From the NCBI GenBank assembly GCA_964609995.1, contig CAZSTI010000002.1, forward strand, positions 1 to 54,676: a stretch of 54,676 nt of DNA, in the 5' to 3' direction. The DNA comes from an uncultured Muribaculaceae bacterium. GTDB lineage: Bacteria > Bacillota_I > Bacilli_A > RF39 > UBA660. Positions 14,621 to 49,258 of the stretch are shown here, in pieces. Position numbers and translations under genes: made by a program. The stretch's first letter is position 1. Each line of letters opens with the position of its first letter. The notes beneath the pieces were generated by a model, which ran no database searches, was not told the origin of the DNA, and was given only the letters and a program-made list of their open reading frames with translations.

Positions 14621-14767
14621 AACTCACCTCCTAAATAAAAACTCTCATTATACATAACGAGAGTTTAAAATAACATTGTTATTTAAACCCTCGGTAGGAA
14701 ATATTAAGCTTATTAAGCCCCTACTGTCTATGGGTATCGCTTTTCAAATTGTATTATATATTAATAC
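14621..14767 (-). promoter_or_regulatory. ribosomal protein L10 leader with terminator-type attenuator hairpin
   Basis: 147-nt untranslated spacer before rplJ. On the minus strand a GTAGG...CCTAC stem is followed by AAACTCTC-N12-GAGAGTTT plus TTTTATTT (14632-14666), just before the SD AGGAGGTG. Confidence 0.55.
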
Positions 14768-21868: not shown

Positions 21869-23389
21869 TTATTCAATTCTATTAAATAATATATCTATTT
21901 TTTCCACCTTTATATTGTTTTCTAAATTGCCAAATGCATTAATTGAATCTAAAGAAACATTTGCTGTATTAAGGGATTTTAATATTTTTTCTGAAGTATC
22001 CGGCAAAAACGGTTTCAATAAAACACCAATAATTCTAATAGATTCTATAGTATTATATAATACAGTATTTAATCTATCAAAGTTTTCATTTTTTGCCAAA
22101 ATCCAAGGAGCTGTATCATCAATATATTTATTACACAATCTTGCTAGATCTATTATTTGAGATAAAGCCATACTAATATTAATATTTTCTATTGATTCTT
22201 CTACTTTAATAGGCATTTTTGATACTTCCTCAATAAATTTTTCATCTATTTCATTATTGTTTTCTATTTTATTTACAATTCCATCAAAATATTTTATTGA
22301 CATTGTAATAGTTCTATTTATTAAATTACCTAAAGTGTTTGCTAAATCTGAGTTTACTTTTTCCTTAATCAAATCTTTAGATATTAATCCATCACTTGTA
22401 ATAGGCATAGAACTCAATACATAATATCTAACTTGGTCTAAACCAAATTCATTAACTAATTCATCTGCATATAATACATTCCCTCTAGATTTGCTCATTT
22501 TTTCCTTATCAGAAATTAACCATTGATGTCCAAAAATAGTTTTAGGTAATTTTTCATTTAAAGCCATTAGTAATATTGGCCAATATATAGAATGAAATCT
22601 AAATATGTCTTTTCCAATTATTTGTAGATCGGCTGGCCAATATTTTTCGAATTTTTCGCCCTTATTATTTAAGTCATATCCCAAAAAAGTAATGTAATTT
22701 GAAAGAGCATCAATCCACACGTATATTACATTATTTTTATCAAAAGGAACTTTTACTCCCCATTCAAAAGTACTTCTTGTTACACATAAATCTTGTAAGC
22801 CTGGTTTAATAAAATTATTTATTATTTCATTTTTTCTAAAATCCGGTTGTAAAAATGTGGGGTTTTCCTCAATATATTTCAATAATTTTTCTGTGTAATT
22901 TGATAATTTTAAAAAATATGCTTCCTCTCTCTTTTTTTCTACAGTTCTTCCACAATCGGGACAATTTCCATTATTTAACTGAAGATCGGTATAAAAAGAC
23001 TCGCAAGGAATACAGTACCAACCCTCATAAACGTCTTTATAAATATCACCTTTATCATATAGTTTTTGAAATATTTGAGATACACTTTTCTTATGGTTTT
23101 CGTCTGAAGTTCTGACAAAAGCGTCATATGAAATATTTAACATATCATAATTTTCTTTCACTATATTTGAAATGTTGTCAACAAATTCTTGTTCTGATAC
23201 TTTGTTTTCCAAGGCTTTTATATGCACTTTTTCTCCGTGTTCATCAGTACCGGTTTGAAAATATACATCAAATCCTTTTAATCGTTTATATCTTGCAATA
23301 CAATCAGCCAAAACAACTTCATATACATTGCCTATATGAGGTTTCCCCGAAGCATACGCAATCGCAGTAGTTATATAATATTTTTCCAT
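21869..23389 (-). CDS. metG: methionine--tRNA ligase (short form, no C-terminal tRNA-binding domain)
   Basis: 506 aa; HIGN (class I HIGH), KMSKS and a CPDCG zinc knuckle. Confidence 0.96.
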   Translation of the reverse strand: MEKYYITTAIAYASGKPHIGNVYEVVLADCIARYKRLKGFDVYFQTGTDEHGEKVHIKALENKVSEQEFVDNISNIVKENYDMLNISYDAFVRTSDENHKKSVSQIFQKLYDKGDIYKDVYEGWYCIPCESFYTDLQLNNGNCPDCGRTVEKKREEAYFLKLSNYTEKLLKYIEENPTFLQPDFRKNEIINNFIKPGLQDLCVTRSTFEWGVKVPFDKNNVIYVWIDALSNYITFLGYDLNNKGEKFEKYWPADLQIIGKDIFRFHSIYWPILLMALNEKLPKTIFGHQWLISDKEKMSKSRGNVLYADELVNEFGLDQVRYYVLSSMPITSDGLISKDLIKEKVNSDLANTLGNLINRTITMSIKYFDGIVNKIENNNEIDEKFIEEVSKMPIKVEESIENINISMALSQIIDLARLCNKYIDDTAPWILAKNENFDRLNTVLYNTIESIRIIGVLLKPFLPDTSEKILKSLNTANVSLDSINAFGNLENNIKVEKIDILFNRIE

Positions 23390-23399
23390 AGCATCCTCC

Positions 23400-23596
23400 T
23401 AATAAAAAAACTATAAATTTAAGGACGAATAATCGCGGTACCACCTTAATTCATAGTATTCTATGCACTCATTTCTTTAACGCAGAAATACGTTTGACTC
23501 CAAAACCATTTTCAATAATATCCTTATACTTGTTTCACCAAACCAAGCTCTCTACAATAATTTTTATTATTTACTTGTTTCTTCAATGTCATTTAT
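23400..23596 (-). promoter_or_regulatory. T-box leader (Met specifier) controlling metG
   Basis: Minus strand: AGAGAG...GGTGAAA at the stem I base, specifier loop GAAAATGG with AUG at 23507-23509, T-box AATTAAGGTGGTACCGCG at 23434-23451, and a terminator helix CTATGAATTAAGG...CCTTAAATTTATAG plus T7. Confidence 0.88.
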
Positions 23597-31878: not shown

Positions 31879-32307
31879 TTATTTTCTTATTTCTTTAAAA
31901 AAATTATTTATTAGAGACTGAGATTCTTTTTCACAAAGGCCATAAATTATATTTGGCTTAGATACGTTGACTTTATCAACAAATTCCCACTTTTGATTAT
32001 TTTTTATCGAACAATATATTTTACTTATTCTACACTCTCTAATTACACTCATACACATATCACACGGTTCAAGAGTTACAAATAGTAAACATTCATTTAA
32101 TCTCCAATCCCCAATTTTTTTACATGCTTTTTTAATTGCAATTATTTCCGCATGATCCAAAGGAATATTTGATTTTTCTTTTTTGTTATATCCTCTTGCA
32201 ACAATCTTATCTTTATATACTATAACAGCACCAACTGGAATTTCATTATATTTGTAAGCTTTAATTGCTTCTTTTATGGCCTCTTTCATATATTTTTCTT
32301 CCCACAT
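31879..32307 (-). CDS. tadA: tRNA-specific adenosine deaminase
   Basis: 142 aa; HAE...(25)...PCDMC deaminase zinc motifs. Confidence 0.9.
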   Translation of the reverse strand: MWEEKYMKEAIKEAIKAYKYNEIPVGAVIVYKDKIVARGYNKKEKSNIPLDHAEIIAIKKACKKIGDWRLNECLLFVTLEPCDMCMSVIRECRISKIYCSIKNNQKWEFVDKVNVSKPNIIYGLCEKESQSLINNFFKEIRK

Positions 32308-32319
32308 AACACTCCTCTA

Positions 32320-32335
32320 TGTTCCACGTGGAACA
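32320..32335. promoter_or_regulatory. parS-type ParB binding site, copy 1 (perfect 16-bp palindrome)
   Basis: TGTTCCACGTGGAACA; one position from the B. subtilis consensus TGTTCCACGTGAAACA; lies between the ffs U-tract and the tadA SD. Confidence 0.8.
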
Positions 32336-32337
32336 TT

Positions 32338-32420
32338 AAAAAATGACGTACACAAATTCTCTTAATGGGGCTGCTATCTTTCGATCCTGACCAATTAAAT
32401 TAAGGAACTTGTTACGTCAA
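32338..32420 (-). ncRNA. ffs: signal recognition particle RNA, minimal (about 80 nt, no Alu domain)
   Basis: Minus strand is one long hairpin, UGACGUA...UACGUCA, followed by U6. Apical domain IV GGUCAGGAUC-GAAA-GAUAGCAGCC matches the conserved GGUCAGGUCC-GGAA-GGAAGCAGCC of 4.5S RNA. Confidence 0.85.
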
Positions 32421-32424
32421 AATA

Positions 32425-32453
32425 AGTATAATATAATATGCATATATAATCAA
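32425..32453 (-). promoter_or_regulatory. promoter for ffs
   Basis: Minus strand TTGATT (32448-32453), 17 nt, TATACT (32425-32430), 5 nt before the first hairpin base. Confidence 0.55.
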
Positions 32454-32500
32454 ATAATTTTATTATATATATTTAACAAACATAAGCCATTAATACTTTA

Positions 32501-32516
32501 TGTTTCACGTGGAACA
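32501..32516. promoter_or_regulatory. parS-type ParB binding site, copy 2 (exact B. subtilis consensus)
   Basis: TGTTTCACGTGGAACA; the reverse complement is TGTTCCACGTGAAACA. Confidence 0.85.
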
Positions 32517-32584
32517 TAAAACAAAATAATGTATAATTAACCGTTTTTCCAAATACAAAACAAAATATGAATTTGATGTAAATA

Positions 32585-32600
32585 CGTTTCACGTGGAACA
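32585..32600. promoter_or_regulatory. parS-type ParB binding site, copy 3 (one outer mismatch)
   Basis: CGTTTCACGTGGAACA; the inner 15 of 16 positions are identical to copy 2. Confidence 0.75.
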
Positions 32601-32608
32601 TTAAAAAT

Positions 32609-32622
32609 ATTTCCCGGGAAAT
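32609..32622. promoter_or_regulatory. Noc-binding site (NBS), copy 1
   Basis: ATTTCCCGGGAAAT is an exact match to the 14-bp NBS palindrome described for B. subtilis Noc; the palindrome extends to ATATTTCCCGGGAAATAT. Confidence 0.8.
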
Positions 32623-32631
32623 ATTTTAATT

Positions 32632-32645
32632 ATTTCCCGGGAAAT
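32632..32645. promoter_or_regulatory. Noc-binding site (NBS), copy 2
   Basis: ATTTCCCGGGAAAT exact; 23 bp centre-to-centre from copy 1; 25 bp downstream of the gyrA stop. Confidence 0.8.
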
Positions 32646-32669
32646 ATAAAGCAGGAAAAATAATTGGTT

Positions 32670-35102
32670 TTATTGTTCTTTAACATTGAATACTGATGAC
32701 ACCTTTTGATTTTCTTTTAGATTAATTAATCTTACCCCTTGAGTAACTCTACTCATTCTTGATATTTGATTAATTGGAATTCTAATTATCATTCCAAAAT
32801 CCGTTACTATCATTAAATCCTCGTCATCTTCAACCAATTTAAAGGCCACAATTTTTCCGGTTTTTTCAGTTGAATTGAGAGTTTTTACGCCTTTACTTCC
32901 TCTTTTGGTTATTCTGTATTCGTCAATTGAAGTTCTTTTTCCATATCCGTTTTCACTAACTACTAAGACTTCACTGTTGCTACAAGAAATGTTAGCATCA
33001 ATACATATTGATCCAGTTTCCAAATTTATGCCTCTAACACCAGTTGCATTTCTTCCCATAATCCTAATTTCTTTTTCATTGAATCTTACCATTTTGCCAT
33101 TTGAAGAAGCCATTACTACTTCTGAATTCCCATCAGTTTTTAATACTGATATTAATTTGTCATTTTCTTTTAAATTAATTGCAATTTTTCCGGTTTTTCT
33201 TATATTTTCGAAATCGGAAACATTACATCTTTTGACTAAACCATTTTTAGTTGCAAACAATAAAAACTTATTATTTTCTTCTTTTGTTATTTTTAAAATT
33301 GAGGTAATTTTTTCATCTTTTTCTAAAGGTAGTAAGTTTACAATTGGTAAACCTTTTGACTGCCTACTGTATTCAGGAACTTCATATCCTTTAATTCTAT
33401 AAATTAAACCTTTGTCAGAAAACAATAGTAAGAAGTTGTGAGTATTTAACATAATTAAGTTCTCAACAAAATCTTCTTCGTTTGTATTCATACCCTTGAT
33501 TCCTGTTCCACCTCTATTTTGTATTCTATATGTGTCTAATGGAAGTCTTTTTATATATCCATTATTAGTTAAAGTAACAATTATTTCTTCTTTTGTAATT
33601 AATTCTTCATCTTCAATGTTTTCGATTGAAGATGTGTCAATTATTGTTCTTCTATTATTAGAATACTTATCTTTTATTTCATTCATTTCGGTTTTAATTA
33701 TATTTAAGACCTTCTTAGGATCTTTAAGTATTTCTTCTAATTCGTTAATTAAATCTAATAATTGTCTTAATTCTTCTTCAATTTTTCCTCTTTCAAGACC
33801 AGTAAGCCTTCTTAATTTCATTTCTAAAATAGCTTCGGCTTGTATATCCGATAATCCAAATCTAGTCTTTAGTTCCTCTTTTGCCTTGTTATCATCTTTT
33901 GAGGCTTTTAATATTATTACAATCTCATCTATATTGTCTAAAGCTATTTTTAAGCCTTCTAAAATATGCTCTCTTGCCTTAGATTTTTCTAAATCAAATT
34001 GAGTTCTTCTTATAATTATGCTTTTTTGGTATTCTACATAATATTCTAGAATTTCTTTTAATCCTAATGTTCTTGGTCTACCATTTACTAACATTAATAA
34101 ATTAATTCCATAGTTTATTTGTAATGGTGTGTGTTTATATAAATTATTTAAAACAACATTAGCGTTTGCTTCTTTTTTTAAATCAATTGTTAATTTAATA
34201 CCTTCGAGAGTTGATTCATCGTGTAAGTCACTTATCCCATCTAATTGTTTGTTTCTTATTAATTCACCGATTTTTTTTGTTAAATCATTTGTTTTACTAA
34301 CTTGATACGGTACTTCTGTAATAATAATTTTACTTCTAGAATTTTCTTCTTCTACAATTGTTGCTTTTCCTCTTAAAGTAATTGAACCCCTTCCAGTTTC
34401 GTACGCTTTTTTTATTCCACTATTTCCGATAATGAACCCATAAGTTGGAAAATCTGGTCCTTTGATATATTGCATAAGTTCTAATACGGAAATATCGGGA
34501 TTATCAATGTATGCAACACATCCATCTATTACTTCTCCCAAATTATGAGGAGGTATATTTGTTGCCATTCCAACTGCAATACCCATATTTCCATTAATTA
34601 ATATATTCGGGAATCTAGATGGAAGTATTGTTGGTTCTTTTCTTTGCCCGTCGTAATTGTCGATAAAATCAACGGTGTTTTTGTTAATATCTCTTAATAA
34701 TTCCATAGATATTTTTGATAATCTAGCTTCTGTATAACGCGAAGCCGCAGGGCTATCACCATCACCAGATCCGAAGTTTCCGTGTCCGTCAACTAAAACA
34801 TGCCTATATGTAAAATCTTGAGCCATTCTGGCCATACTATCATATATTGCAGAATCACCATGTGGGTGATAATGACCCATTACTGCACCAACTGCATTAG
34901 CACTTTTTTGATGTTTTTTATCTGGAGTCATTCCTTCTTCATACATTGTATAAAGAATTCTTCTATGAACTGGTTTTAGACCATCTCTAACATCTGGAAT
35001 AGCTCTTGATACAATGACGCTCATTGAATAATCCAAAAATGAATTTTTTATTTCAGAAGATAAATTAATATCTTCTATTTTATCAATATTTTTCTCTTCC
35101 AT
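32670..35102 (-). CDS. gyrA: DNA gyrase subunit A
   Basis: [15 protein letters not shown], active-site [11 protein letters not shown]-terminal beta-pinwheel repeats. I chose the ATG at 35102 behind AAAGGAGA. Confidence 0.97.
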
Positions 35103-35112
35103 ACGATCTCCT

Positions 35113-37038
35113 TTATACATCAAGATTTCTTACTTTTAAGGCATTTTCCTCTATGAATTGTCTACGAGGCTCAACTTCTTCACCCATTAATAATTGAAAT
35201 GTTTCGTCTGCAACAATAGCATCTTCAACAGTTAATCTAATCAAAGTTCTTGAATTTACACTCATTGTAGTCTCTCTCAATTCGATTGCATCCATTTCTC
35301 CAAGACCTTTCATTCTAACAATTTCAACTTTTGTGTTTTCGGATAAACTTGATAAATACTCATCTCTTTCCTTTTCGTTAAGTACATATTTTTGAGTTTT
35401 ACCATGAGATATTCGAAACAAAGGTGGTTGAGCAGCATAAACATGCCCTTTTTCTACCAACGGCTTAAAGTATCTATACAAAAAAGTCAATAATAGTGTT
35501 CTAATATGTGCTCCATCAACATCGGCATCTGTCATTATAATTATTTTATAATATCTTAATTTTGTATAATCGAATTCCTCCCCAATACCAGTTCCAAAAG
35601 CAGTAATTAAATTTCTTATTTCTTCATTTCCAAGTATTCTATCAAGTCTAGATTTTTCAACATTCAATATTTTTCCTCTTATTGGAATTACAGCTTGCGT
35701 CTTTGAATCTCTTCCTTGTTTTGCGGGGCCTTCAGCACTTCTTCCTTCTACAATAAATATTTCTGAAATAGTGGGGTCTTTACTAGAACAATCAGTTAGC
35801 TTTTCCCATTGATTAGAAATATCAAGAAGTCCTTTTCTTCTAGTCAATTCCCTAGCTTTTTTTGCGGCCATTCTTGCTCTTGCAGCAGAAAACACTTTAT
35901 CCATAATTTTTCTGGCTTCATCTGGGTTTTCAAGCAAATATCTTTCCAATCCTTTGGAAAATATGCTATCAGATATTTTTCTTACTTCTATGTTACCAAG
36001 TTTTGTTTTAGTTTGGCCTTCAAATTGCGGATTAGGATGTTTAACAGAAATAATCATTGTTAATCCTTCTCTTACATCTTCTCCAATTAATGCCTCATCG
36101 TTTTGTTTTAAATAACCATTGCTCTTTGCGTAATTATTAATTATTCTAGTTAGCGCTCTTTTAACACCTTCATCATGCGTTCCCCCCTCGTAAGTATTAA
36201 TATTATTTACAAATGAGTATATATTTTCAGTATATATATCAGTATATTGCATTGCAATATCAATTTTGGTATCTTCTTCAGATTCTTCAAAATATATAAT
36301 ATCTTTATGAATTGGTTCCTTATTTTTGTTTAACAAACTTACATATTCGGAGATACCTCCTTCATATATAAAAATTTCTTTTTTTCCATCTTCTCTTTCA
36401 TCAGACAAAATAAATCTAAGTCCTTTATTTAAAAAAGCCAATTCTCTAGTCCTGTTTTTTAATATTTCATAATCATACTCGGTTGTTTCTTCAAATATAG
36501 TAGGATCAGCTTTGAAACTAACGGTTGTTCCTGTTCTTTCAATATCGCATTCACCAATTACTTTTAAAGCATCTTCGGGTTTTCCTCCGTTTTTAAATCT
36601 TTGGAAATATATTTTTCCATTCTTATATACTGTTACTTCTAAATACAAGCTTAAAGCATTAACTACCGATGCTCCAACTCCGTGTAATCCACCAGATACT
36701 TTATAACCGCCTCCTCCAAACTTTCCTCCAGCATGAAGAACGGTATATACAGTTTCAACTGTAGATACTCCGGTTTTTGGATGTACGTCAATTGGAATTC
36801 CTCTTCCATCATCTTTTATTGTTATAACATTGTTTTTTTCGATTGTAATTTCAATATCATCACAATAACCTGCCAAAGCTTCGTCAACAGAATTGTCTAC
36901 AATTTCCCATACCAAATGATGTAATCCCTTAGATCCAGTAGTACCTATATACATACCCGGTCTTTTTCTTACAGCTTCCAAACCTTCTAATACTTGAATA
37001 TCAGATGAATCATAGTGCATATTGTTAGTGTTTTCCAT
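35113..37038 (-). CDS. gyrB: DNA gyrase subunit B
   Basis: [36 protein letters not shown]-like EGRSAEG Toprim, [10 protein letters not shown]-like [11 protein letters not shown]. Confidence 0.97.
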
Positions 37039-37159: not shown

Positions 37160-38269
37160 TTATTGTTTTTTTATAATTTTTTGATTATTAACAAAATATA
37201 TATTTCCTTTTTTTATCAAACTTGCACTTATGTTATTGATTTCAGTAGTAGTAATAAAGGTTTGTATATCTTTTTTTATATACTTAAGCAGGTTGTTTTT
37301 TTTATTTTCATCTAATTCACTAAATATATCATCAAGTAGTAATATCGGATATTCTTTAGTAGTTTCTTTTATTATCTCAATTTCCCCTAACTTCATGCAA
37401 ATTACTATAATTCGTTGTTGTCCTTGAGAAGATTGCTCTTTTACTTCAATATTGTTAATGAAAAACGTTATATCATCTCTATGTGGTCCATAATAAGTCA
37501 TTCCAAGAAAGTTATCTCTTTTTATATTGTTTTTTAATTTATTGAATAGTATTTTTTCAATATTTTCTTGATTATAGTTATCTATTTCTATGTTTGTTTT
37601 ATATTTAATTACAAGTTCTCCTTTTCCAAAAATATTTTTGTATATTTTTTTTGAGTTTTCATTAATTCTATTTACAAATTGATTTCTTATAACAATAATT
37701 GAAGCTCCTTTTTTAGAAATCTGCTCATCAATAATTGAAATATAATTTAAATCTATATCCTTAAATAATTTGTTTTTTATATATTCGTTTCTATTTTTTA
37801 CAAGTAAATTATATTCGTTTAACAAAGTTAAATAGTTATTATTAATTTGACCTATTTCAATATTTAAATATTTTCTTCTAATTGATGGATTACCCTTTAT
37901 AAGTTCCAAATCATTTGGATAAAATATTATTACATTAAGTTTTGAAATATAATTACTTATTTTTTTTATTGTTTGATTATTAATTTTAACATTTTTACCT
38001 TTATAATTAAGTAATATTTCAAATTTGTTAATGTTATTCTTTGATTCAACAATTCCTTTTATTTTAGAAAACTGTTTATCGTTTTTTAGTAAGGATTTAT
38101 CCATACTTGTTCTATGAGATTTGGTGATAGCCAAAAAATATATACTTTCTAATACATTCGTTTTTCCTTCAGCATTATTTCCATAGAATATATTGACATT
38201 GTTTGAAAAAGACAAATGCAAACTATCATAATTTCTAAAATTTATTAATTCTAATTCTTTTAATATCAT
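37160..38269 (-). CDS. recF: DNA replication and repair protein RecF
   Basis: N-terminal Walker A GNNAEGKTNVLE, signature SQGQQR, Walker B ILLLDDIFSELD. Confidence 0.94.
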   Translation of the reverse strand: MILKELELINFRNYDSLHLSFSNNVNIFYGNNAEGKTNVLESIYFLAITKSHRTSMDKSLLKNDKQFSKIKGIVESKNNINKFEILLNYKGKNVKINNQTIKKISNYISKLNVIIFYPNDLELIKGNPSIRRKYLNIEIGQINNNYLTLLNEYNLLVKNRNEYIKNKLFKDIDLNYISIIDEQISKKGASIIVIRNQFVNRINENSKKIYKNIFGKGELVIKYKTNIEIDNYNQENIEKILFNKLKNNIKRDNFLGMTYYGPHRDDITFFINNIEVKEQSSQGQQRIIVICMKLGEIEIIKETTKEYPILLLDDIFSELDENKKNNLLKYIKKDIQTFITTTEINNISASLIKKGNIYFVNNQKIIKKQ

Positions 38270-38275
38270 ACAAAC

Positions 38276-39622
38276 CTATTTTCCTAAACAAAAATTATTA
38301 AAAATTTCATCAACTAGTTCTTCGTTATAATTCTTTCCTATTATTTCTCCCAAAAGCTTCCAAATTTCTAATATGTCTATTTCTAATATATCTACTGGCA
38401 TATTATTTATTAATCCTTTTTTTATTTCGGAAATATTTTCTAATGTTTTTTTAAGAGTTGAGATTTGCCTTGTGTTAAACAAATAATTTGGATCCTTTTT
38501 ATTTATATTTTCTATGTTAAACATTTCAATTAGTTTGTTTCTTAAAGGTTCAATGTTATTATTCAAGGCACTTATCTCTACTACGTTTCCTATTAATAAT
38601 TTTCTATCTAATTTGCTTTCTAAATCAATTTTATTTATTACTATTATTCTATTATTATCTTTTGTTAAATTTAATAACTTTATGTCTGCTTTTTGTATTT
38701 TTTTATTATTGTCAAATACTAAGATAACAACATCAGCTGTATCAATTAATTTAATCGATTTTGAAACACCAATTCTTTCTATTGTATTATTTGTTTCTCT
38801 TATTCCTGCGGTATCAATAATATTAAATAAAACAGACTCTATAACTATTGTTCCTTCAACAAAGTCTCTTGTAGTACCAGGTATGTTTGTTACTATTGCT
38901 TTTTCTTCACCTATAAGTTTATTTAATAGGCTGCTTTTTCCTACATTTGGTTTGCCTAATATGATTGTGTTGATTCCATCTTTTATTATTCTTGAATTTT
39001 CTGATTCTTTAATTATTTTATTTATTTCTTCTTCTAATATTATTATCTCTTTTTTTATTAATTTATTAGTTATTACCGTAATGTCTTCATATTCAGGATA
39101 ATCAATATTTGCTTCAATATTTGCAAGTATTTTTGATATTTTATTTCTTAAGTTTTCTATCATTAAAGTAACGTTTCCATTTAATCCATTAATTGCTAAT
39201 TTTCTAGCACTTTCACTTTTTGAATTTATAAGATCCATTATTGATTCTGCTTCAATTAAATCAATTCTTCCATTTAAAAAAGCTCTTTTTGTAAACTCTC
39301 CGGGTTCTGCTAACCTGGCTCCATTTTTAATTAATATTTCTAATATCTTTTTTGTAGTTGTAATTCCACCATGGCAATTAATTTCTACTATATCTTCTCT
39401 TGTATAAGTTTTAGGAGCTTTCATTACACTGACTAAAACTTCATCTATTGATATGTTGTTTTCTAATATATGACCATAATGTATTGTATGAGAATCAACT
39501 TTTGAAATATTTTTTGTAAATATATTATTTAAAATTTCGAAAGAATCTTTTCCACTCATTCTGATTATAGCTATTGCTCCAATACCAAGAGATGAAGATA
39601 TTCCTACAATTGTGTCTTCCAT
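38276..39622 (-). CDS. mnmE: tRNA modification GTPase MnmE
   Basis: G domain GKPNVGKSSLLN, DTAGIR, NKIDL; C-terminal FCLGK. The track start is a GTG inside the SD GGGTGAT, so I chose the ATG at 39622. Confidence 0.95.
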   Translation of the reverse strand: MEDTIVGISSSLGIGAIAIIRMSGKDSFEILNNIFTKNISKVDSHTIHYGHILENNISIDEVLVSVMKAPKTYTREDIVEINCHGGITTTKKILEILIKNGARLAEPGEFTKRAFLNGRIDLIEAESIMDLINSKSESARKLAINGLNGNVTLMIENLRNKISKILANIEANIDYPEYEDITVITNKLIKKEIIILEEEINKIIKESENSRIIKDGINTIILGKPNVGKSSLLNKLIGEEKAIVTNIPGTTRDFVEGTIVIESVLFNIIDTAGIRETNNTIERIGVSKSIKLIDTADVVILVFDNNKKIQKADIKLLNLTKDNNRIIVINKIDLESKLDRKLLIGNVVEISALNNNIEPLRNKLIEMFNIENINKKDPNYLFNTRQISTLKKTLENISEIKKGLINNMPVDILEIDILEIWKLLGEIIGKNYNEELVDEIFNNFCLGK

Positions 39623-39667
39623 AAATATCACCCAATCTAATTATAACAAAAAAAAAGAGATTAATCT

Positions 39668-40282
39668 CTATTCTTTTCTTTTAATAACAATATATCTTTC
39701 GGGTTCTTCTCCAATTGATTCGGTTGTAATACCATGGATGTTACCACAAATGTTGTGAACATTTCTTCTTTCATATGAATTCATTGGATCTAACGTTACA
39801 GGTATTCCGGTTTTTTTAACTTCATATGCAATATTTTTAATATTTCTCTCAATATTTATTTGTTGTTTCTCTCTATATTCTTCTATATCAATTATTATAT
39901 TAACTTTAAACCCAGTATGATTTTGAATAGAACTTCTTAAAATTGTTTGTAGAGAATCAAGGGTTTTTCCATTTTTACCAATAAGAATTGCATTATTGTT
40001 AGATATCAAATTTAATTTAATAAAATCTTCTCTTTTTTTTGCTTCTATTTTTATTTCTAATCCCATTTTTTGGACTATATCATTAATTAAATCTTTTGAA
40101 TATTCAATAATATCATCTTTTAATATTACTTCAATTTTTGCTTTTTTGGATTTAAATAATCCACCAGTTGTTTCTTCGCTTTCCTTAATTAAAATATCTT
40201 TTTCTGAAACTTCAAGTTCATATAACATCTTTTCTTTTGCAACATCAAGATTTTTTTCTAAATATTCATGTACTTTAATCAT
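39668..40282 (-). CDS. jag: RNA-binding protein Jag/KhpB (Jag_N, KH, R3H)
   Basis: KH GKNGKTLDSLQ and R3H ...YERRNVH... motifs; yidC-jag pairing. Confidence 0.9.
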   Translation of the reverse strand: MIKVHEYLEKNLDVAKEKMLYELEVSEKDILIKESEETTGGLFKSKKAKIEVILKDDIIEYSKDLINDIVQKMGLEIKIEAKKREDFIKLNLISNNNAILIGKNGKTLDSLQTILRSSIQNHTGFKVNIIIDIEEYREKQQINIERNIKNIAYEVKKTGIPVTLDPMNSYERRNVHNICGNIHGITTESIGEEPERYIVIKRKE

Positions 40283-41297
40283 TATTAACTCCTTTTTTTA
40301 CAACAATATTTTGTAATATCGTAAATATATTTGAAGATATCCAATAAATACTTATTGCACTAGCCATTGAAAACGACATAAATATTATCATTACAACAAA
40401 TACTGTATTCATTATATTCATTTGTTTTTGATTATCTAAATTTGATGGAGCTCCTTTGTTTAACTTAAATGATAAATATGTTATTACTCCAAGTAAAATC
40501 ACTATTATTATATACCACCAAGCACCTTTTTGAATAGCTATCAATGGTGTCATTCCTAATTTAAATCCAAGTAAGCTTCCTTCAAATATTGCTGGTGTTC
40601 TGTTAATTGCTTCTATAAATGCAAACAATAAAGGAATTTGTATAATTGCAAATAAGCAACTAGACATGGGATTAATTTTGTATTTTTTGTATATAGCCAT
40701 TGTCTCTTGACTTTTTTTCATAAGAGATTCTTGGTCACTTTTTCCTTCATATTTTTTTTCAACTTTTTTAATTTCTGGTTGAGCAATTTTAATGTTTTCT
40801 GATTGCAATGCAGTACTTTTTGTAACAGGTAATAAAATAATTCTTATTAAAATACTAATTATTACTAAAGATATACCATAGTTATTTAAAATGTTTCCCA
40901 ACTTTAATATTAACCATGCCAAAGGTTTAACAAAAAATGTATCCCATAAACCTTCATATTCTCCGCTAGATATTTTATATTCATCACATTCTTGTAATTT
41001 GTTTAAATCAACATTATTGTTTTCATAAATTTCCATTACATCTTTATTAGTAGGTTTACATAGAATATTTTCAGTCAAAGTTTGACCAGTTTCATTTTCT
41101 TTTGCAATATCGCATTTTTCTATACACTCTGTTAGACAATCATCTTTATTTTCTTCTTTTTCGCAAGAAAAATCACAAGTTTCACAAATATAACCCGCTT
41201 CGTATTTGATTGGTTTTTTATCTTTATCTACTAGTGTTTTTGAACACCCAGTAAATACTAATAACATCAATATTATAAGAATTATTTTTTTGTACAT
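40275..41297 (-). CDS. yidC: membrane protein insertase YidC (lipoprotein type) with Cys-rich N-terminal extension
   Basis: Lipobox LVFTGC, then an ~85-aa Cys-rich segment. After that comes the 60-kDa-IMP core: ISLVIISILIRIILLP, a basic loop, and PLLFAFI.... Confidence 0.9.
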   Translation of the reverse strand: MYKKIILIILMLLVFTGCSKTLVDKDKKPIKYEAGYICETCDFSCEKEENKDDCLTECIEKCDIAKENETGQTLTENILCKPTNKDVMEIYENNNVDLNKLQECDEYKISSGEYEGLWDTFFVKPLAWLILKLGNILNNYGISLVIISILIRIILLPVTKSTALQSENIKIAQPEIKKVEKKYEGKSDQESLMKKSQETMAIYKKYKINPMSSCLFAIIQIPLLFAFIEAINRTPAIFEGSLLGFKLGMTPLIAIQKGAWWYIIIVILLGVITYLSFKLNKGAPSNLDNQKQMNIMNTVFVVMIIFMSFSMASAISIYWISSNIFTILQNIVVKKGVNND

Positions 41298-41305
41298 ATT
41301 TTCTC

Positions 41306-41626
41306 CTATATTTTATTTAATAATATCATTAATTCACGTTCTTTTTCTTTATAATCTAAGTCAACAACTCTTTTTCTTAACATTATTATATAATCATATA
41401 TTTTAATTTTTTCTGTGTTATTATCTAAAATACTTTTTGTTTGTCTTTTTAATTTATTTCTAATAATTGCTTTTCCTATTTTCTTTGGAACAGAAATACC
41501 TATTCTGTATTTGTTTTCTTTGTTTAACATATAATATATATTATAGTATTTATTATTAATAAATAATCCGTTTTTTATTATGTTATCGAAGTCTTTATTA
41601 GATTTTACAATATTTATTTTTTTCAT
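41306..41626 (-). CDS. rnpA: ribonuclease P protein component
   Basis: 106 aa; KAIIRNKLKRQTK is the RNR motif; rpmH-rnpA order. Confidence 0.92.
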   Translation of the reverse strand: MKKINIVKSNKDFDNIIKNGLFINNKYYNIYYMLNKENKYRIGISVPKKIGKAIIRNKLKRQTKSILDNNTEKIKIYDYIIMLRKRVVDLDYKEKERELMILLNKI

Positions 41627-41669
41627 TGTATTTACCTTACTTCATAACAAAAAAACACATTGAGGTGTT

Positions 41670-41798
41670 TTATTTTGTCAATTTCTTTCTTTGTTTTTTT
41701 CTTCTAGAAGCTACCACTCCGGTATCGGCTTTTTTTCTTGCTAAAAAACCATGAGTTTTTTTCGCTTTTAACTTATTTGGTTGGTATGTCCTTTTCAT
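41670..41798 (-). CDS. rpmH: 50S ribosomal protein L34
   Basis: Not in the track (42 aa). My translation is [42 protein letters not shown]; SD CAGGAGGAA 6 nt upstream. Confidence 0.95.
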
Positions 41799-41932
41799 TG
41801 TAATTCCTCCTGTCTTTAAATCAATATAATTATAATTGTAATAGCACCAAAAGTCAATTAAAATGTTATTAACATATTAACAGCTTATTTAATAAATATA
41901 ATTGGTTGTTAATAAGATTGTTATAGAAAATT

Positions 41933-41941
41933 TGTGGATAA
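41933..41941 (-). promoter_or_regulatory. DnaA box (perfect TTATCCACA)
   Basis: Plus strand reads TGTGGATAA. Confidence 0.8.
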
Positions 41942-41976
41942 CTACTGTTTTATTGTTTTAATGCTACGATAAAACA

Positions 41977-41985
41977 TGTGGATAA
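41977..41985 (-). promoter_or_regulatory. DnaA box (perfect TTATCCACA)
   Basis: Plus strand reads TGTGGATAA, 44 bp from the first box, same orientation. Confidence 0.8.
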
Positions 41986-42086
41986 GTATGTTAATATTTT
42001 GTTATTTACCTATTTTTGTTTAATTTTTAATAAAAATGATTTACAATAGTAGTGTAATTAAGAAAAATATCAAGGAGAATGGAATT

Positions 42087-43436
42087 ATGGATGAAAAAGA
42101 TCTGTGGATAAATTTTTTGAATTTAATTAAAGAAAAATTAGTTCCAATTGCTTTTGATGCATGGTTTAGTGAAACAAGACTTCATAAAGTTGAAAACAAA
42201 AAAATGTATATTATTGTTCCAATGAATTTACATAAAAAAAATTTGTCAGAGACTTATTATGATATTATAAAAGATAATATGAATAAGTTGACAGGGACTA
42301 ATTTTGAATTCGAATTTTTATTAGAAGAAGAAATTAATGATAAAAAAATAGATAAAGTTGAAGAAGGAGTTCCTTTTAATAATCCAATTCAGGCAAATCT
42401 AAATTCTAATTATACATTTGATACATTTGTAATTGGAGAAACAAATAGAATGGCTTTTACGGCATCTTTTGCAGTTGCTGAAAGACCTGGAAAAGCCTAC
42501 AATCCTTTGTTTTTATATGGAAGTAGTGGTTTAGGTAAAACCCATTTAATGCATGCAATAGGAAATTATATAGTTAGTGAAACCAATAAAAAAGTATTAT
42601 ATATAACAAGTGATAAATTTAAATCTGATTTTATATCTATAAATAAAAGAAAACATGATGAAAACAATATTGATAACGTAGAATCATTTAAAAATAAATA
42701 TAGAAATATTGATGTTCTTATTGTAGATGATATACAATTTTTAGCAGGTGCTACAGAAAGTCAAACAGAATTTTTTCATACCTTTAATGAATTACATCAA
42801 GAAGGTAAACAAATAATTATTTCATCTGATAGATCACCAGATGATTTAAAATTACTAGAAGAAAGATTAAGAACTAGATTTAATTGGGGATTAGCAGTAA
42901 ATATTTTTCCTCCAGATTATGAATTAAGAATTGAAATTTTAAAGAAAAAAATTAGTGCTCACGAAGTTGCTAAGCCTATTTCTGAAGATGTATTAATATT
43001 TATTGCTAACAATTGTACTTCTGATGTAAGAAAATTAGAAGGAGCATTAAATAGATTATTTGCGTATACTGTAATGTTTAATAAAGAAAAAATTGAAATT
43101 GATGTTGCAAAAGAAGCTTTAAGTGATTTTTTGAACTCAAACTCATATATTAAAAATAATATACAAAAAATACAAAAAATAGTATGTGATTATTATCAAA
43201 TTACTATAGAAGATATGAATTCAAAGAAAAGAAATAATAATTTTGTACTTCCTAGACAAGTTGCGATGTACTTAGCAAGAAATTTAACTGAAGAGAGTTT
43301 TCCAAGAATAGGAATTGAATTTGGAGGAAGAGATCACACAACAGTTATTCATGCATGTAATAAAATTGAAGAAGAAATAAAAAAAGATAAAGATTTTAAA
43401 AGTTCAATAGATCTGTTGAAAAAGAAACTTAAATAA
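42087..43436 (+). CDS. dnaA: chromosomal replication initiator protein DnaA
   Basis: AAA+ GSSGLGKTHLMHAIGN, DDIQFL, C-terminal DNA-binding GGRDHTTVIHA. I chose the ATG at 42087 behind AAGGAGAA over the track start at 42036. Confidence 0.96.
   Translation: MDEKDLWINFLNLIKEKLVPIAFDAWFSETRLHKVENKKMYIIVPMNLHKKNLSETYYDIIKDNMNKLTGTNFEFEFLLEEEINDKKIDKVEEGVPFNNPIQANLNSNYTFDTFVIGETNRMAFTASFAVAERPGKAYNPLFLYGSSGLGKTHLMHAIGNYIVSETNKKVLYITSDKFKSDFISINKRKHDENNIDNVESFKNKYRNIDVLIVDDIQFLAGATESQTEFFHTFNELHQEGKQIIISSDRSPDDLKLLEERLRTRFNWGLAVNIFPPDYELRIEILKKKISAHEVAKPISEDVLIFIANNCTSDVRKLEGALNRLFAYTVMFNKEKIEIDVAKEALSDFLNSNSYIKNNIQKIQKIVCDYYQITIEDMNSKKRNNNFVLPRQVAMYLARNLTEESFPRIGIEFGGRDHTTVIHACNKIEEEIKKDKDFKSSIDLLKKKLK
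42103..42111 (-). promoter_or_regulatory. DnaA box (perfect) inside the first codons of dnaA
   Basis: Plus strand reads TGTGGATAA, encoding LWI at codons 6-8. Confidence 0.6.
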
Positions 43437-43483
43437 TGTTAATAAATAATTTAAAAGATTATAATTAATAAGGTATAATTAAG

Positions 43484-43492
43484 TTATCAACA
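43484..43492 (+). promoter_or_regulatory. imperfect DnaA box in the dnaA-dnaN spacer
   Basis: TTATCAACA (1 mismatch) inside a 104-bp nearly pure A/T spacer, the position of the second oriC half and DUE in Bacillus-type origins. Confidence 0.35.
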
Positions 43493-43540
43493 ATATTAAC
43501 TATAATAATAAATATATAAAAAAAGAAAGGAATATTAATA

Positions 43541-44659
43541 ATGAATTTTATAATTAAAAAAGAATTACTTTTAGAAAATTTAAATAATGTATCAAAAGCT
43601 ATTTCAAATAAAAATATAATACCTATATTAGGAGGTATTAAATTAGATTTAAAAGAAGAAGGATTATATTTAACTTGTAGTGATAATGAAATAACTATAA
43701 GATCTTTCATTGAAAAAAAATATATTGATAAAATAAATAATAATGGAAGTATTGTTATAATTGGAAGATATTTTATAGAATTAATTAGAAAAATACCTAG
43801 TGAATTAATTGAAATTATTACTGATGGTTTGAATTTAACAATTAGTACAATCAATGGTGAATATAATTTAAATGGAATGAATCCAGAAGAATTTCCAGAT
43901 AAATCATTAGAATTATCACCAAAACCAATAAAAATAGATAAAAATGTAATAAAAAATATAATTTTTCAAACATCTTTTGCAATTTCAAATCAAGAATCAA
44001 GACCAATATTAACAGGAATTAATTTTAAAATAAAAGATAAAATTATAGAATGTGTTGCAACTGATTCATATAGATTATCAAAAAAAACAATATCCATTGA
44101 TGAAAAAATTGAAGAAGAAGTTAACTTAGTAATCCCAGGTAGAAATTTAATTGAATTATCTAAAATAATAAACGAGGAAAATGAAAAAATTGAAATGCAT
44201 ATTTTTTCAAATAATGTTTTATTTAATTTTGATAATATAATGTTTCAAACTAGATTATTGAATGGTAATTATCCAGACACAACAAAATTAATTAAAATAG
44301 AACCAACATTAAAATTAAAAGTAAATACTGAAGATTTATATAACGCAATAGATAGAGCTTCATTATTAACCTCTGAGAAAGATAAAAATGTTATAAATAT
44401 GGAAATAAATAATAAAGAAATAGTAATTAGTTCAACTTCTCAAGAAATAGGTAAAATAGAAGAAAGAATTAATGTAGAAAAAGATAATAACCTTTCTATG
44501 AATATTTCTTATTCATCAAAATATATGATGGAAGCATTAAGAACTATAAAAAGTGAAAATACTTTTATTTTATTGAGTGGTGAAATTAAACCAATCATTT
44601 TAAAGTCAACTGAAGAAGATAATTTAATTCAGTTAATTGTTCCAATAAAAACTTTTTAA
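43541..44659 (+). CDS. dnaN: DNA polymerase III subunit beta (sliding clamp)
   Basis: 372 aa; typical MNFIIKKELL..., three-domain length, directly after dnaA. Confidence 0.95.
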   Translation: MNFIIKKELLLENLNNVSKAISNKNIIPILGGIKLDLKEEGLYLTCSDNEITIRSFIEKKYIDKINNNGSIVIIGRYFIELIRKIPSELIEIITDGLNLTISTINGEYNLNGMNPEEFPDKSLELSPKPIKIDKNVIKNIIFQTSFAISNQESRPILTGINFKIKDKIIECVATDSYRLSKKTISIDEKIEEEVNLVIPGRNLIELSKIINEENEKIEMHIFSNNVLFNFDNIMFQTRLLNGNYPDTTKLIKIEPTLKLKVNTEDLYNAIDRASLLTSEKDKNVINMEINNKEIVISSTSQEIGKIEERINVEKDNNLSMNISYSSKYMMEALRTIKSENTFILLSGEIKPIILKSTEEDNLIQLIVPIKTF

Positions 44660-44717
44660 TTTATATTGATTAAATTATATATATAAAGTATAATTTGTTT
44701 TCGAATTGGGTGATATT

Positions 44718-46532
44718 ATGAATTATGAAGTAATTGTTGTTGGAGGAGGACATGCGGGATGTGAAGCGGCTTTGGCTACTTCGCGTTTATTTCATAATAC
44801 TCTATTAATAACTGGAAATTTTGATATTGTCGCTCAAATGCCATGTAATCCTTCTATTGGAGGAAGTGCAAAAGGAATAGTAGTTAGAGAAATTGATGCT
44901 TTAGGTGGGGAAATGGGTAGGTGTGCAGATAAAACACTTATTCAAATGAAAATGTTAAATACAGGAAAAGGTCCTGCTGTAAGAAGTTTAAGATGTCAAG
45001 CAGATAAAGTTACATATCCAAAAGAAATGTTAAAAACATTAAAAAATCAATCTAATTTAGATTTAATTGAAAATATGGTCGAAGATTTAATAATAGAAAA
45101 TAATGAAGTAAAAGGAATAATATTAGAAAATGGTAATAAAATATATTCTAAAATAGTAATACTTACTACAGGAACTTATTTAAAAAGTGATATATTAGTT
45201 GGAAATATAAGAACAAGAATGGGCCCAATGGAACAAAAACCATCGTTATATTTAAGTGATAACTTAAAAAAATATGGTTTTGAAATTATTAGATTAAAAA
45301 CAGGCACTCCTCAAAGAATTGAAAAATCTTCAATTGATTTTTCAAAAACAAAAGTTGAACAAGGATCCCCAGAAGAATTTACTTTCAGTTTTGATAATAA
45401 AGTATATTATGATGTTAAAAAACAGATACCATGTCATTTAGTACACTCTACAAAAGAAACAAAACAAATTATATTAGATAATTTAAGTAAATCAAGTATA
45501 TATGGAGCTATAGAAGAAAAATTAGGAATTGGACCAAGATATTGTCCTTCTTTTGAAGATAAAATAGTAAAATTTGAAAATAAAGATACTCATCAAATCT
45601 TTTTAGAACCCGAAAGTTTATATTATGATGATATATATTTGCAAGGATTTTCTACAAGTATGCCAAAAGAAGTTCAAGATAAACTAGTTCATAGTTTACC
45701 AGGGTTAGAAAATGCAATTATTAATAAATATGCTTATGCTATCGAATATGATGCAATAAATCCTACACAATTAAAAAACAATCTTGAAACAAAAATAATT
45801 AATAATTTATTTACTGCTGGTCAAATAAATGGAACTAGTGGTTATGAAGAAGCTGCTTGTCAAGGATTAATGGCGGGGATCAATGCCGTTTTTAAACTAG
45901 AAAATAAGGAACCTTTTGTATTAACAAGAAATGAAGCGTATATTGGAGTATTAATTGATGATTTAATAACAAAAGGAACAAATGAACCATATAGGCTATT
46001 AACATCAAGAGCAGAATATAGACTTTTATTAAGGCACGATAATGCTGATTTAAGATTAATGGAATATGGCTATAAAATAGGACTTATTGAAGAACAAAAA
46101 TATTTAAAATTTATGAAAAAGAAACAAAATATTGAAGAATTAATTGTAAAAATCAAAAAAATAAAAGTAAATTCAAAGGAAACAATATATGAATACTTAA
46201 AGCACCCAGAATCAAATATTTATTCTGTAATTAATTTATTTGATAAAAAATATTCTAATGAAGAACTAGAACAAGTAGAAATTATTGTAAAATATGAAGG
46301 ATATATTAAAAAAACAGCAAAAAACGCAGAAAATATGTTAAAACTCGAATATAAAAAAATACCTGAAGACATAGATTATAATCAAATTAAAAACATAGCA
46401 ACTGAGGCAAGACAAAAATTAATTAAAATAAGACCTAAATCTATTGGTCAAGCTACTAGAATAAGTGGAGTAAACTTATCGGATATATCTGTATTATTAG
46501 TATATATGAAAAGGTATTTTAAAAATGAATGA
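44718..46532 (+). CDS. mnmG: tRNA uridine 5-carboxymethylaminomethyl modification enzyme MnmG
   Basis: FAD motif VIVVGGGHAGCEAA, GPRYCPSFEDK, QINGTSGYEEAA. The track start is a TTG, so I chose the ATG at 44718 behind GGGTGAT. Confidence 0.96.
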   Translation: MNYEVIVVGGGHAGCEAALATSRLFHNTLLITGNFDIVAQMPCNPSIGGSAKGIVVREIDALGGEMGRCADKTLIQMKMLNTGKGPAVRSLRCQADKVTYPKEMLKTLKNQSNLDLIENMVEDLIIENNEVKGIILENGNKIYSKIVILTTGTYLKSDILVGNIRTRMGPMEQKPSLYLSDNLKKYGFEIIRLKTGTPQRIEKSSIDFSKTKVEQGSPEEFTFSFDNKVYYDVKKQIPCHLVHSTKETKQIILDNLSKSSIYGAIEEKLGIGPRYCPSFEDKIVKFENKDTHQIFLEPESLYYDDIYLQGFSTSMPKEVQDKLVHSLPGLENAIINKYAYAIEYDAINPTQLKNNLETKIINNLFTAGQINGTSGYEEAACQGLMAGINAVFKLENKEPFVLTRNEAYIGVLIDDLITKGTNEPYRLLTSRAEYRLLLRHDNADLRLMEYGYKIGLIEEQKYLKFMKKKQNIEELIVKIKKIKVNSKETIYEYLKHPESNIYSVINLFDKKYSNEELEQVEIIVKYEGYIKKTAKNAENMLKLEYKKIPEDIDYNQIKNIATEARQKLIKIRPKSIGQATRISGVNLSDISVLLVYMKRYFKNE

Positions 46533-47226
46533 AATAGAATTTATAAATAATTTAAAAGAACTTAATATAGAAATTAACGAAATTCAGCTAAAACAATTAA
46601 AAGAGTATTGTGATTTTTTAATAGAATATAATAATAAAATTAATCTTACCTCAATAAATAGTATAAAAGACATATATTTAAAACATTTTTTTGATAGTTT
46701 AACATTGAATAAAGCAATCAATTTAAAAAAAATAAGAAACTTATGTGATGTAGGAACTGGTGCTGGTTTTCCAGGCATAGTAATTAAAATATTATTTCCA
46801 AATATTGAATTGACTTTAATAGAATCAACTAATAAAAAAACTATTTTTTTGAAAGAATTAGTTAATAAACTTAATATTAATGTTGAGATTATTAACAAAA
46901 GAGCAGAAGAATATTCAAAAACATGCAAAAACAGGTTTGATTTAGTAACATGTAGAGCTTTATCAAAATTAAATATTATATCTGAAATTTGTATTCCTAT
47001 GGTAAAAATAGGAGGATATTTTATTCCAATGAAGAGTGAAATAAAAACTGAAATTGAAAATACTGAATATTTAAAGTTATTAAATAGCAAAATAGAAAAA
47101 ATTTACGAATTTAATTTACCAATTGAAAATAGCAAAAGATCATTGATAGTAATAAAAAAATATAATAATTGTGATGATAAATTCCCAAGAAGTTATAAAA
47201 ACATTGTTGAAAAACCATTAAAATAG
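46525..47226 (+). CDS. rsmG: 16S rRNA (guanine527-N7)-methyltransferase RsmG
   Basis: DVGTGAGFPGI SAM motif; 8-nt overlap with mnmG; classic mnmG-rsmG pair. Confidence 0.95.
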   Translation: MNEIEFINNLKELNIEINEIQLKQLKEYCDFLIEYNNKINLTSINSIKDIYLKHFFDSLTLNKAINLKKIRNLCDVGTGAGFPGIVIKILFPNIELTLIESTNKKTIFLKELVNKLNINVEIINKRAEEYSKTCKNRFDLVTCRALSKLNIISEICIPMVKIGGYFIPMKSEIKTEIENTEYLKLLNSKIEKIYEFNLPIENSKRSLIVIKKYNNCDDKFPRSYKNIVEKPLK

Positions 47227-48645: not shown

Positions 48646-49242
48646 ATGAAAAAAAATGGATTTACTTTAATTGAAGTTTTGGCAGTTTTAATTATTATTA
48701 TGATATTAATAACTATTACTGTTCCAATATTAAGTGGTAAAATGGAAGAAACTAAAACAAAAGCTGCTGAAGCACAAATAAAAAATATTGAAATTGCAGC
48801 CAAAAAATATGTAACAGATAATATAAGAGATTTAGATGAATTAAATAGATTTGGTTTTATGAACGTAAGTTTAAAGACACTAATTGATAATAATTACATT
48901 GGTGCAAATATAAAAAACCCAATGAATAATGAAACATTATTTATTGATGACAATGTTTATATAACCTTAGATTATAATAATAATATAAAAACCAATTATG
49001 ATATTAATCAAAAAAACAAGGCTGCAATTACACTAAAGGGTTTTTATAATGACAAGGTAAAATTAGGAACACCATATGTTGATCCAGGAGCAATAGGGTT
49101 TGATGGTACAAACACTAATTCAAATGTTTTAGCATTTTCGGGCAGCGTAGATACATCAAAAGAAGGGATATATGTTTTGAAATACTATTATCAAACATCA
49201 AATATAATAGAGAGAAACGTAATTGTTACTGATGATATGTAA
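48646..49242 (+). CDS. prepilin-type N-terminal cleavage/methylation domain protein with one C-terminal Ig-like (DUF5011-type) domain
   Basis: MKKNG|FTLIEVLAVLIIIMILITI is a class III signal with Glu+5. The C-terminal ITLKG...LGTPYVDPGA.GFDG....V..SGSVDTSKEGIYVLKY fits the DUF5011 pattern. Confidence 0.75.
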   Translation: MKKNGFTLIEVLAVLIIIMILITITVPILSGKMEETKTKAAEAQIKNIEIAAKKYVTDNIRDLDELNRFGFMNVSLKTLIDNNYIGANIKNPMNNETLFIDDNVYITLDYNNNIKTNYDINQKNKAAITLKGFYNDKVKLGTPYVDPGAIGFDGTNTNSNVLAFSGSVDTSKEGIYVLKYYYQTSNIIERNVIVTDDM

Positions 49243-49258
49243 TTTTTAAGGAGTAAAT

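Follow-up and report, generated by a model that had tools for sequence, protein, structure and literature searches.

Why does a single intergenic spacer close to a bacterial replication origin hold the binding sites of two related clamp proteins, and are these sites read by two proteins or by one? These questions arise from the gyrA-tadA spacer of a 54,676-base stretch of DNA (hereafter, the window) from an uncultured gut Bacilli lineage, in which palindromes of the parS type stand side by side with Noc-binding sites (NBS). ParB and Noc are the textbook case of a duplicated DNA-binding pair that has diverged to avoid cross-talk, and both act as CTP-gated sliding clamps. Judged from sequence comparisons, the spacer has the appearance of a functional composite centromere, of a type so far undescribed.

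Five palindromes in one spacer close to oriC

To verify the initial annotation of this locus, the five palindromes, their flanking genes, and the origin region were analyzed (Table 1). All five palindromes were recovered to the base, and their assignment to the canonical parS and NBS types was supported by consensus matches. Two of the three parS-type sites matched the symmetrised 16-bp consensus TGTTNCACGTGAAACA without mismatch and the third with one mismatch; the second copy, as claimed, was an exact parS in reverse complement. Only the inner 14 bp of the NBS (ATTTCCCGGGAAAT) had been recognized before, while both copies in fact match the full 16-bp site TATTTCCCGGGAAATA, a consensus confirmed in PMC7383237 and PMC8429893. 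The last three sites were measured to lie 23 bp apart centre to centre, the same spacing as annotated. No further copy of either site was detected in the 54,676-base window at up to two mismatches, with a chance expectation in the window of 0.06 for parS and 0.24 for NBS, and three parS copies were reached in 0 of 100 shuffles. Moreover, the identical five sites recurred at the same spacing (+23, +23, +84, and +181) in L001 and L002, which are independent Logan assemblies of the same species, thus ruling out an assembly artefact.

Table 1 Features of the window considered in this study (positions refer to the window)
Feature	Position	Strand	Remarks
parS-1 TGTTCCACGTGGAACA	32320-32335	.	Perfect palindrome, flanked by the ffs hairpin/T-run and the tadA RBS
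parS-2 TGTTTCACGTGGAACA	32501-32516	.	Reverse complement is exactly TGTTNCACGTGAAACA
parS-3 CGTTTCACGTGGAACA	32585-32600	.	One mismatch, at an outer base
NBS-1 TATTTCCCGGGAAATA	32608-32623	.	Exact 16-bp Noc-binding site; inner ATTTCCCGGGAAAT at 32609-32622
NBS-2 TATTTCCCGGGAAATA	32631-32646	.	Exact 16-bp Noc-binding site; inner ATTTCCCGGGAAAT at 32632-32645
NBS-2/NBS-1 hairpin	32607-32647	-	17-bp stem on the gyrA transcript, then UUUUU; terminator scan and RNA fold
tadA	31879-32307	-	Downstream flank of the array, followed by dnaX-ybaB-recR; Pfam deaminase and synteny
ffs (small SRP RNA)	32330-32428	-	Rfam RF00169, 44.3 bits (gathering score, 40)
gyrA	32670-35123	-	Upstream flank of the array; Pfam DNA_topoisoIV and DNA_gyraseA_C
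oriC marker, three perfect DnaA boxes TTATCCACA	41933-42111	.	Surround the dnaA start, where the GC skew switches
Noc-type ParB paralogue, 441 aa	47295-48620	+	ParB_N and HTH_ParB; predicted NBS reader
T-box leader	23418-23595		Above the Rfam gathering score
Ribosomal L10 leader	14627-14751		Above the Rfam gathering score

The initial annotation placed these sites in a spacer between gyrA and ffs-tadA. This gene context was right but needs one refinement, in that ffs sits inside the array, with parS-1 on its tadA side and the remaining four between it and the gyrA stop codon. The functional 3' end of ffs is given by a hairpin and T-run at about 32340, and parS-1 adjoins the tadA ribosome-binding site (GGAG, 32314-17; ATG at 32307). 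A parS placed in the same manner just upstream of tadA also occurs in two related loci (L003 and L008). The array belongs to a minus-strand gene run comprising dnaX, tadA, ffs, gyrA, gyrB, recF, mnmE, jag, yidC, and rnpA, and across oriC follow dnaA, dnaN, mnmG, rsmG, the gene for a 441-aa ParB-family protein, and then pilin-like genes. With the DnaA boxes at 41933, 41977, and 42103 and the GC skew flipping at 42 kb, the distance from the array to oriC amounted to 9.3 to 9.6 kb, in line with the earlier estimate of about 9.5 kb. Elsewhere in the window, a T-box leader precedes a 506-aa open reading frame (21869-23389), and rplJ is preceded by a ribosomal L10 leader.

Related loci and their gene orders

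Relatives were collected by an MnmE scan with one genome retained per species, which yielded 80 loci; their sources are MAGs of uncultured "Bacilli bacterium" from gut and rumen, with Clostridium sp. CAG:1193 and CAG:417 among them, and we take these relatives to belong to the GTDB order RF39. Two gene orders were distinguished. In class A, found in the window and nine other genomes that together form one clade in the MnmE tree, the order is noc-rsmG-mnmG-dnaN-dnaA, oriC, and rnpA...mnmE-recF-gyrB-gyrA-spacer-tadA-dnaX. The rest (class B) showed a Bacillus subtilis-like order, in which recF-gyrB-gyrA follows dnaN and mnmG-rsmG-noc follows mnmE. A comparison of window positions 37160-47226 with L006-L082 showed the recF-gyrB-gyrA and mnmG-rsmG-noc blocks to be swapped across oriC in the clade of the window relative to the B. 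subtilis-like order of most relatives.

The class B genome loci end inside gyrA, and the class B spacers came from one long-read contig (L083) and six metagenome loci obtained by a scan with a DnaX alignment. A search with a class B GyrA fragment, from which L083 was obtained, returned almost only truncated GyrA of one genus. Most GyrA homologues retrieved from the group were truncated (356-646 of about 810 aa), and gyrA of L083 (10001-12416) is split into 577 and 220 aa, probably by a long-read frameshift. The spacer repeats may contribute to short-read assembly breaks near gyrA. No same-species pair joining an array-bearing metagenome locus to a noc-soj-spo0J genome locus was found by blastn. 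Two loci, L084 and L085, carry the same Noc-like protein with differing upstream neighbours (FZPS01000227.1, a 2.03-Mb "contig", versus a 57.6-kb ENA contig), and the 2-Mb record FZPS01000227.1 may be a chimeric or concatenated scaffold. In addition, SpoIIR/SpoIID homologues occur near the origin in relatives (L085:10474-10998; L170:16426-16947 and 1-66), and sporulation genes are thus retained in at least a part of this AT-rich, "Mollicutes-like" group.

Conservation and interleaving of parS and NBS

Each of the 16 gyrA-tadA spacers recovered from gut Bacilli MAGs contained parS, from 2 to 24 copies per spacer, and the sites thus proved conserved at the orthologous locus, a test that the initial annotation had set for its own reading. 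NBS occurred besides parS in 12 of the 16 spacers, comprising 9/9 in the clade of the window and 3/7 elsewhere. Writing P for parS and N for NBS, the class A spacers read N P P P (L003), P P P N N (L005), P P N (L011), P N P N P N P (L013), and six P followed by N N (L021), with four P and five N in L008, four N+36P pairs in L024, and eleven P+26N pairs in L004. Among the class B spacers, the layout of the window recurred in L087 (N N P P P), while L095 (N P P P P P P N P) and L099 (P N P) were also mixed, L086, L091, and L147 held parS only, and the long-read contig L083 held 24 tandem parS with a 26-bp period and zero NBS. Two layouts could thus be told apart, namely, an NBS pair at one edge of a parS cluster (the window, L087, L005, and L021) and alternating parS-NBS pairs (L004, L013, and L024), and in L095 NBS lie at both edges of the parS cluster. 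The offsets between parS and NBS recur at 21-26 or 35-36 bp, with gaps of 7-20 bp between the sites.

Tandem amplification was seen in two loci. In L004 (16984-19556), eleven parS+NBS pairs with an offset of 25-26 bp, in tandem units of about 172/334 bp, extend across 2.6 kb of non-coding DNA, and the pair appears to have been multiplied as one unit. In L083 (12470-13083), 24 head-to-tail 26-bp units (TGTTCCACGTGAAACT plus AAATAAACAA) fill the gyrA-tadA spacer, an arrangement that recalls plasmid sopC.

Across 1.54 Mb of related loci, 82 of the 85 parS fall in 16 kb of spacers. The same 16 kb contain 31 of the 53 exact NBS, the other 22 being single sites elsewhere; these NBS data cover origin-proximal DNA, and in the window both copies lie within the array. 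Exact NBS were found inside the dnaX coding sequence in three class B loci (L087:11041, L091:11066, and L147:11045) and, with one mismatch, in L083 (14858), in each case about 1.04-1.12 kb from the dnaX start, and single exact NBS flank mnmE in L006, L030, L038, L044, and L049.

That the palindromes are short and GC-rich, stand in AT-rich non-coding DNA, and have been amplified in tandem in L004 and L083 might suggest a selfish or structural repeat family of the REP/MITE type with no dedicated binding protein, an alternative already raised in the initial annotation. It fails, however, on the distribution described above, with parS almost confined to one spacer and no other copy in the 54.7-kb window. 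Moreover, the palindromes have the sequences of the pan-bacterial parS and of the Firmicute NBS consensus, and they are kept among species that share only 53-63% identity in MnmE, so that we give this explanation hardly any credence. The 79 sites classified comprised 37 pure parS, 40 pure NBS, and 2 partial hybrids. Sites for a ParB-Noc heterodimer were also considered and rejected, since no hybrid of one parS half and one NBS half occurred among the 79.

The NBS pair at the end of gyrA

On the gyrA transcript, the NBS pair folds into a hairpin that the initial annotation had overlooked (-24.2 kcal/mol, z = -4.8), and the hairpin and its U-run lie 23 nt past the gyrA stop codon. This is the form of a Rho-independent terminator, that is, a stable GC-containing hairpin and a U-run just past a stop codon. 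A weak Rfam match to isrC over the pair (23.9 bits versus 39) was dismissed as noise from the hairpin. Termination would be a sufficient role by itself, and the two ATTTCCCGGGAAAT palindromes might accordingly be nothing but the gyrA intrinsic terminator, resembling NBS by coincidence or common descent, with protein binding limited to parS. Such an explanation, however, has to accommodate a match of both copies to the experimentally defined NBS over its full 16 bases, 53 exact NBS across the order (including those within dnaX and beside mnmE and 11 in one array), and a reader with NBS-type residues encoded nearby, and we consider it very improbable. Because termination does not explain the NBS inside dnaX, beside mnmE, or in the 11-copy array of L004, we regard it as a dual use rather than a replacement, and the pair probably doubles as the gyrA intrinsic terminator alongside its NBS role.

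A Noc-type ParB paralogue without a membrane-targeting helix

The product of 47295-48620, proposed earlier to belong to the ParB family, indeed contains ParB_N and HTH_ParB domains (Pfam, 112 and 104 bits), with the CTP-binding motifs GERR and ENLxR intact (IIAGERRYKA and VENLHRK). Its closest PDB matches are Noc, with 192 bits for Geobacillus Noc versus 161-163 bits for Spo0J. The gene lies 14.6 kb from the array and is directly preceded by rsmG (46525-47226), an order that holds in all relatives; in B. subtilis, noc likewise follows rsmG (gidB). The protein does not pass the curated Noc model NCBIfam TIGR04285 (277.4 bits versus a cut-off of 315), on which a canonical ParB of the order scores 231 bits. 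To our knowledge, there is no Noc outside Firmicutes.

Specificity in this family is set by four residues, R173-T179-A184-G201 in ParB and Q-K-K-R in Noc (Jalal et al. 2020, PMC7383237). Q173 reads adenine 1 of the NBS and R201 reads cytosine 6, given a lysine at 179 or 184, while R173 was always present in the parS binders of the published scan (PMC7383237). Read from alignments to Noc and Spo0J structures, the 441-aa protein carries Q173-K179-S184-R201 and thus agrees with the Noc signature at three of four positions, the exception being serine at 184, and with the NBS-type rule (Q173, R201, and lysine at 179 and/or 184). Under the published residue rules (PMC7383237), Q-K-S-R predicts a protein that binds NBS and not parS. 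Across the order, every Noc-like protein shows Q-K-(N/S/A/T)-R, and lysine never occurs at position 184.

The 10-aa amphipathic membrane-targeting helix at the N terminus of Noc is absent from the 441-aa protein and from the Noc-like proteins across the order. Only 18 acidic residues precede the PNRFQPR motif in the window protein, and the stop-to-stop open reading frame permits at most 7 more. This helix is needed for membrane binding of Noc and for nucleoid occlusion (PMC8429893). Beyond the DNA-binding region, the protein has a low-complexity linker of about 200 aa with a few conserved short motifs, followed by a short conserved C-terminal domain. Owing to this linker, the Noc-like proteins of the order range from about 320 to about 800 aa. 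In close relatives, the linker (window positions 47900-48500) keeps PKPF, PEPHxNxExNPQ..LINKL, SPYVxP, and FDIxxLL, which resemble protein-docking motifs. Two pilin-like genes (48646-50110), with an N-terminal methylation motif and a bacterial Ig-like domain, lie immediately downstream of the noc-like gene and are conserved in L168 and L169, while soj-spo0J takes that position in some relatives.

One reader or two

The initial annotation offered two possibilities, two clamps loading at one locus or a single protein reading both site types. The former is now favoured, although a canonical ParB was found neither in the window nor in the reachable sequence of the clade. A phmmer scan of all open reading frames of the window detected no second ParB-family protein, and soj was absent from the window too. 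Neither Soj nor Spo0J occurred within about 10 kb beyond noc in the close relatives L168, L169, and L085, and no canonical ParB or ParA occurred in the other reachable sequence of the clade, a weak negative given that this sequence covers a few percent of each genome. A profile of 13 Spo0J proteins returned no canonical Spo0J on a contig of the clade among the best 120 matches listed, all of which were from other lineages, and extension from the edge protein of the window yielded no Soj or Spo0J, the Logan contigs being too short to lengthen the window.

Elsewhere in the order, a canonical ParB (about 293 aa, R-M/T-x-G/S, N-terminal LGRGLEELF) with an adjacent Soj was present in 13 related loci, and in four of these genomic settings (L009, L012, L030, and L045) canonical Soj and ParB occur together with a Q-K-S-R Noc-like protein. 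The soj-spo0J pair is often relocated away from noc in the order, as in L009, L023, L045, L048, and L070. No difference in the recognition region was seen between the Noc-like proteins of class A and those of class B. A change of specificity in the clade of the window was considered and rejected, the recognition-helix region being indistinguishable from that of relatives that keep a canonical ParB.

If the clade had lost soj-spo0J, the Noc-derived protein without a membrane helix could act alone as the centromere protein and nucleate on the two site types, parS and NBS. Such a single reader would accord with the lack of canonical ParB or Soj in the available sequence of the clade, with the mixing of both site types in 9/9 of its genomes, and with the missing lysine at position 184 throughout the order, and dual-specificity ParB variants are known in vitro (82 of 362 strong NBS binders, mostly with T or S at 201; PMC7383237). 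Nevertheless, we regard it as unlikely. The parS binders always had R173 and the dual variants mostly T or S at 201, whereas the window protein combines Q173 with R201, and identical recognition residues are found in relatives that retain Soj-Spo0J. Moreover, the other gene-order class has mixed arrays too (L087, L095, and L099), and the sites separate sharply into two classes with hardly any intermediate forms, a pattern not expected of a relaxed reader. If true, the single reader would be a natural dual-specificity ParB-family clamp loading at parS and NBS, a state that laboratory evolution reportedly suggested is avoided.

A reader of parS must exist in the clade, because perfect parS persist across nine species in spacers of about 20% GC, and by the published rules it would not be the Q173/R201 protein. 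Two clamps are favoured because the sites form two discrete classes, the same Noc-like recognition region occurs beside Soj-Spo0J, and some relatives have parS-only arrays; on these grounds, we hold the two-reader model to be moderately probable.

Discussion

We propose that the gyrA-ffs-tadA spacer would serve as the chromosomal centromere of this uncultured gut Bacilli lineage, in which a parS cluster provides loading sites for the CTP clamp of canonical ParB/Spo0J and NBS for a Noc-type paralogue are built in. The Noc-like protein of the window (Q173, K179, and R201) would nucleate on the two NBS and slide outward as a CTP clamp, while a canonical ParB encoded outside the window would nucleate on the three parS. 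Both clamp populations would then occupy the same origin-proximal DNA and form a composite partition complex, with the Noc-like protein as a second centromere-bound factor, either a partner of ParB or a boundary for it. An NBS pair at the edge of the parS cluster would fit a boundary or roadblock role, and interleaved pairs would fit co-assembly; in the window, the NBS pair would additionally terminate gyrA transcription. Because the Noc-like protein is without the membrane-targeting helix, classical nucleoid occlusion is unlikely, and the protein probably acts in another way. The basal role of the spacer would be that of a centromere, because L083 has a parS-only array of 24 copies. Taken as a whole, with parS for ParB, NBS for the Noc-type paralogue, and a track shared by both, this explanation seems to us on balance the likelier one, given the genomic evidence at hand.

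Abutting loading sites, separated by 7-20 bp and co-amplified up to 11 times, imply that two clamp populations share one track by the origin. The locus may thus offer a test bed for whether paralogous clamps collide, block each other, or cooperate, for the role of a Noc without a membrane anchor, and for how a centromere recruits a second reader. As a practical marker, the gyrA-ffs-tadA spacer would indicate the centromere of a large, uncultured, host-associated order.

The initial annotation knew of no description of a dense mixed parS/NBS array, and our literature search likewise found no published mixed parS/NBS array and no published Noc in these lineages. Clusters of parS, NBS, and Noc itself are known already. 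What appear to be new are the conserved interleaving of parS and NBS within one centromere, the joint amplification of the parS-NBS pair, and a Noc orthologue without the membrane helix.

Among the closest known systems are Spo0J/parS and Noc/NBS of B. subtilis (Wu & Errington; Jalal et al. 2020, 2021), with which the window shares identical 16-bp parS and NBS and an origin-proximal location of parS. The Noc-like gene resembles B. subtilis noc in directly following rsmG, and its product in having ParB_N and HTH_ParB, intact CTP motifs, and Q173/K179/R201. In contrast, parS sites of B. subtilis are dispersed and mostly intragenic, while here they are gathered in a single intergenic array, and B. 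subtilis has about 70 NBS spread over its chromosome, while here NBS are interleaved with parS at gaps of 7-20 bp. Compared with B. subtilis Noc, the Noc-like protein of the order is without the 10-aa N-terminal helix, has S/N/A/T in place of K184, and carries a variable linker of 100-500 aa. In Staphylococcus aureus, Noc controls replication initiation beyond nucleoid occlusion, and a minor Noc site lies beside dnaA (Pang et al. 2017, PMC5540599). An origin-related role would thus be common to both proteins, whereas S. aureus Noc retains membrane association and has 41 scattered sites with no parS/NBS interleaving reported.

Several parS within a few kb of oriC form a joint centromere in Caulobacter, Pseudomonas, Corynebacterium, and Myxococcus, as would be the case here, but those clusters hold one site type. 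Finally, the arrays recall sopC of the F plasmid, a tandem centromere made of 12 repeats of 43 bp, in each of which SopB binds a 16-bp inverted repeat. As in sopC, head-to-tail arrays of 16-bp palindromes (24 x 26 bp in L083 and 11 units of 172/334 bp in L004) would load a ParB-family protein; unlike sopC, the array is chromosomal and presents two site types for two predicted paralogous readers.
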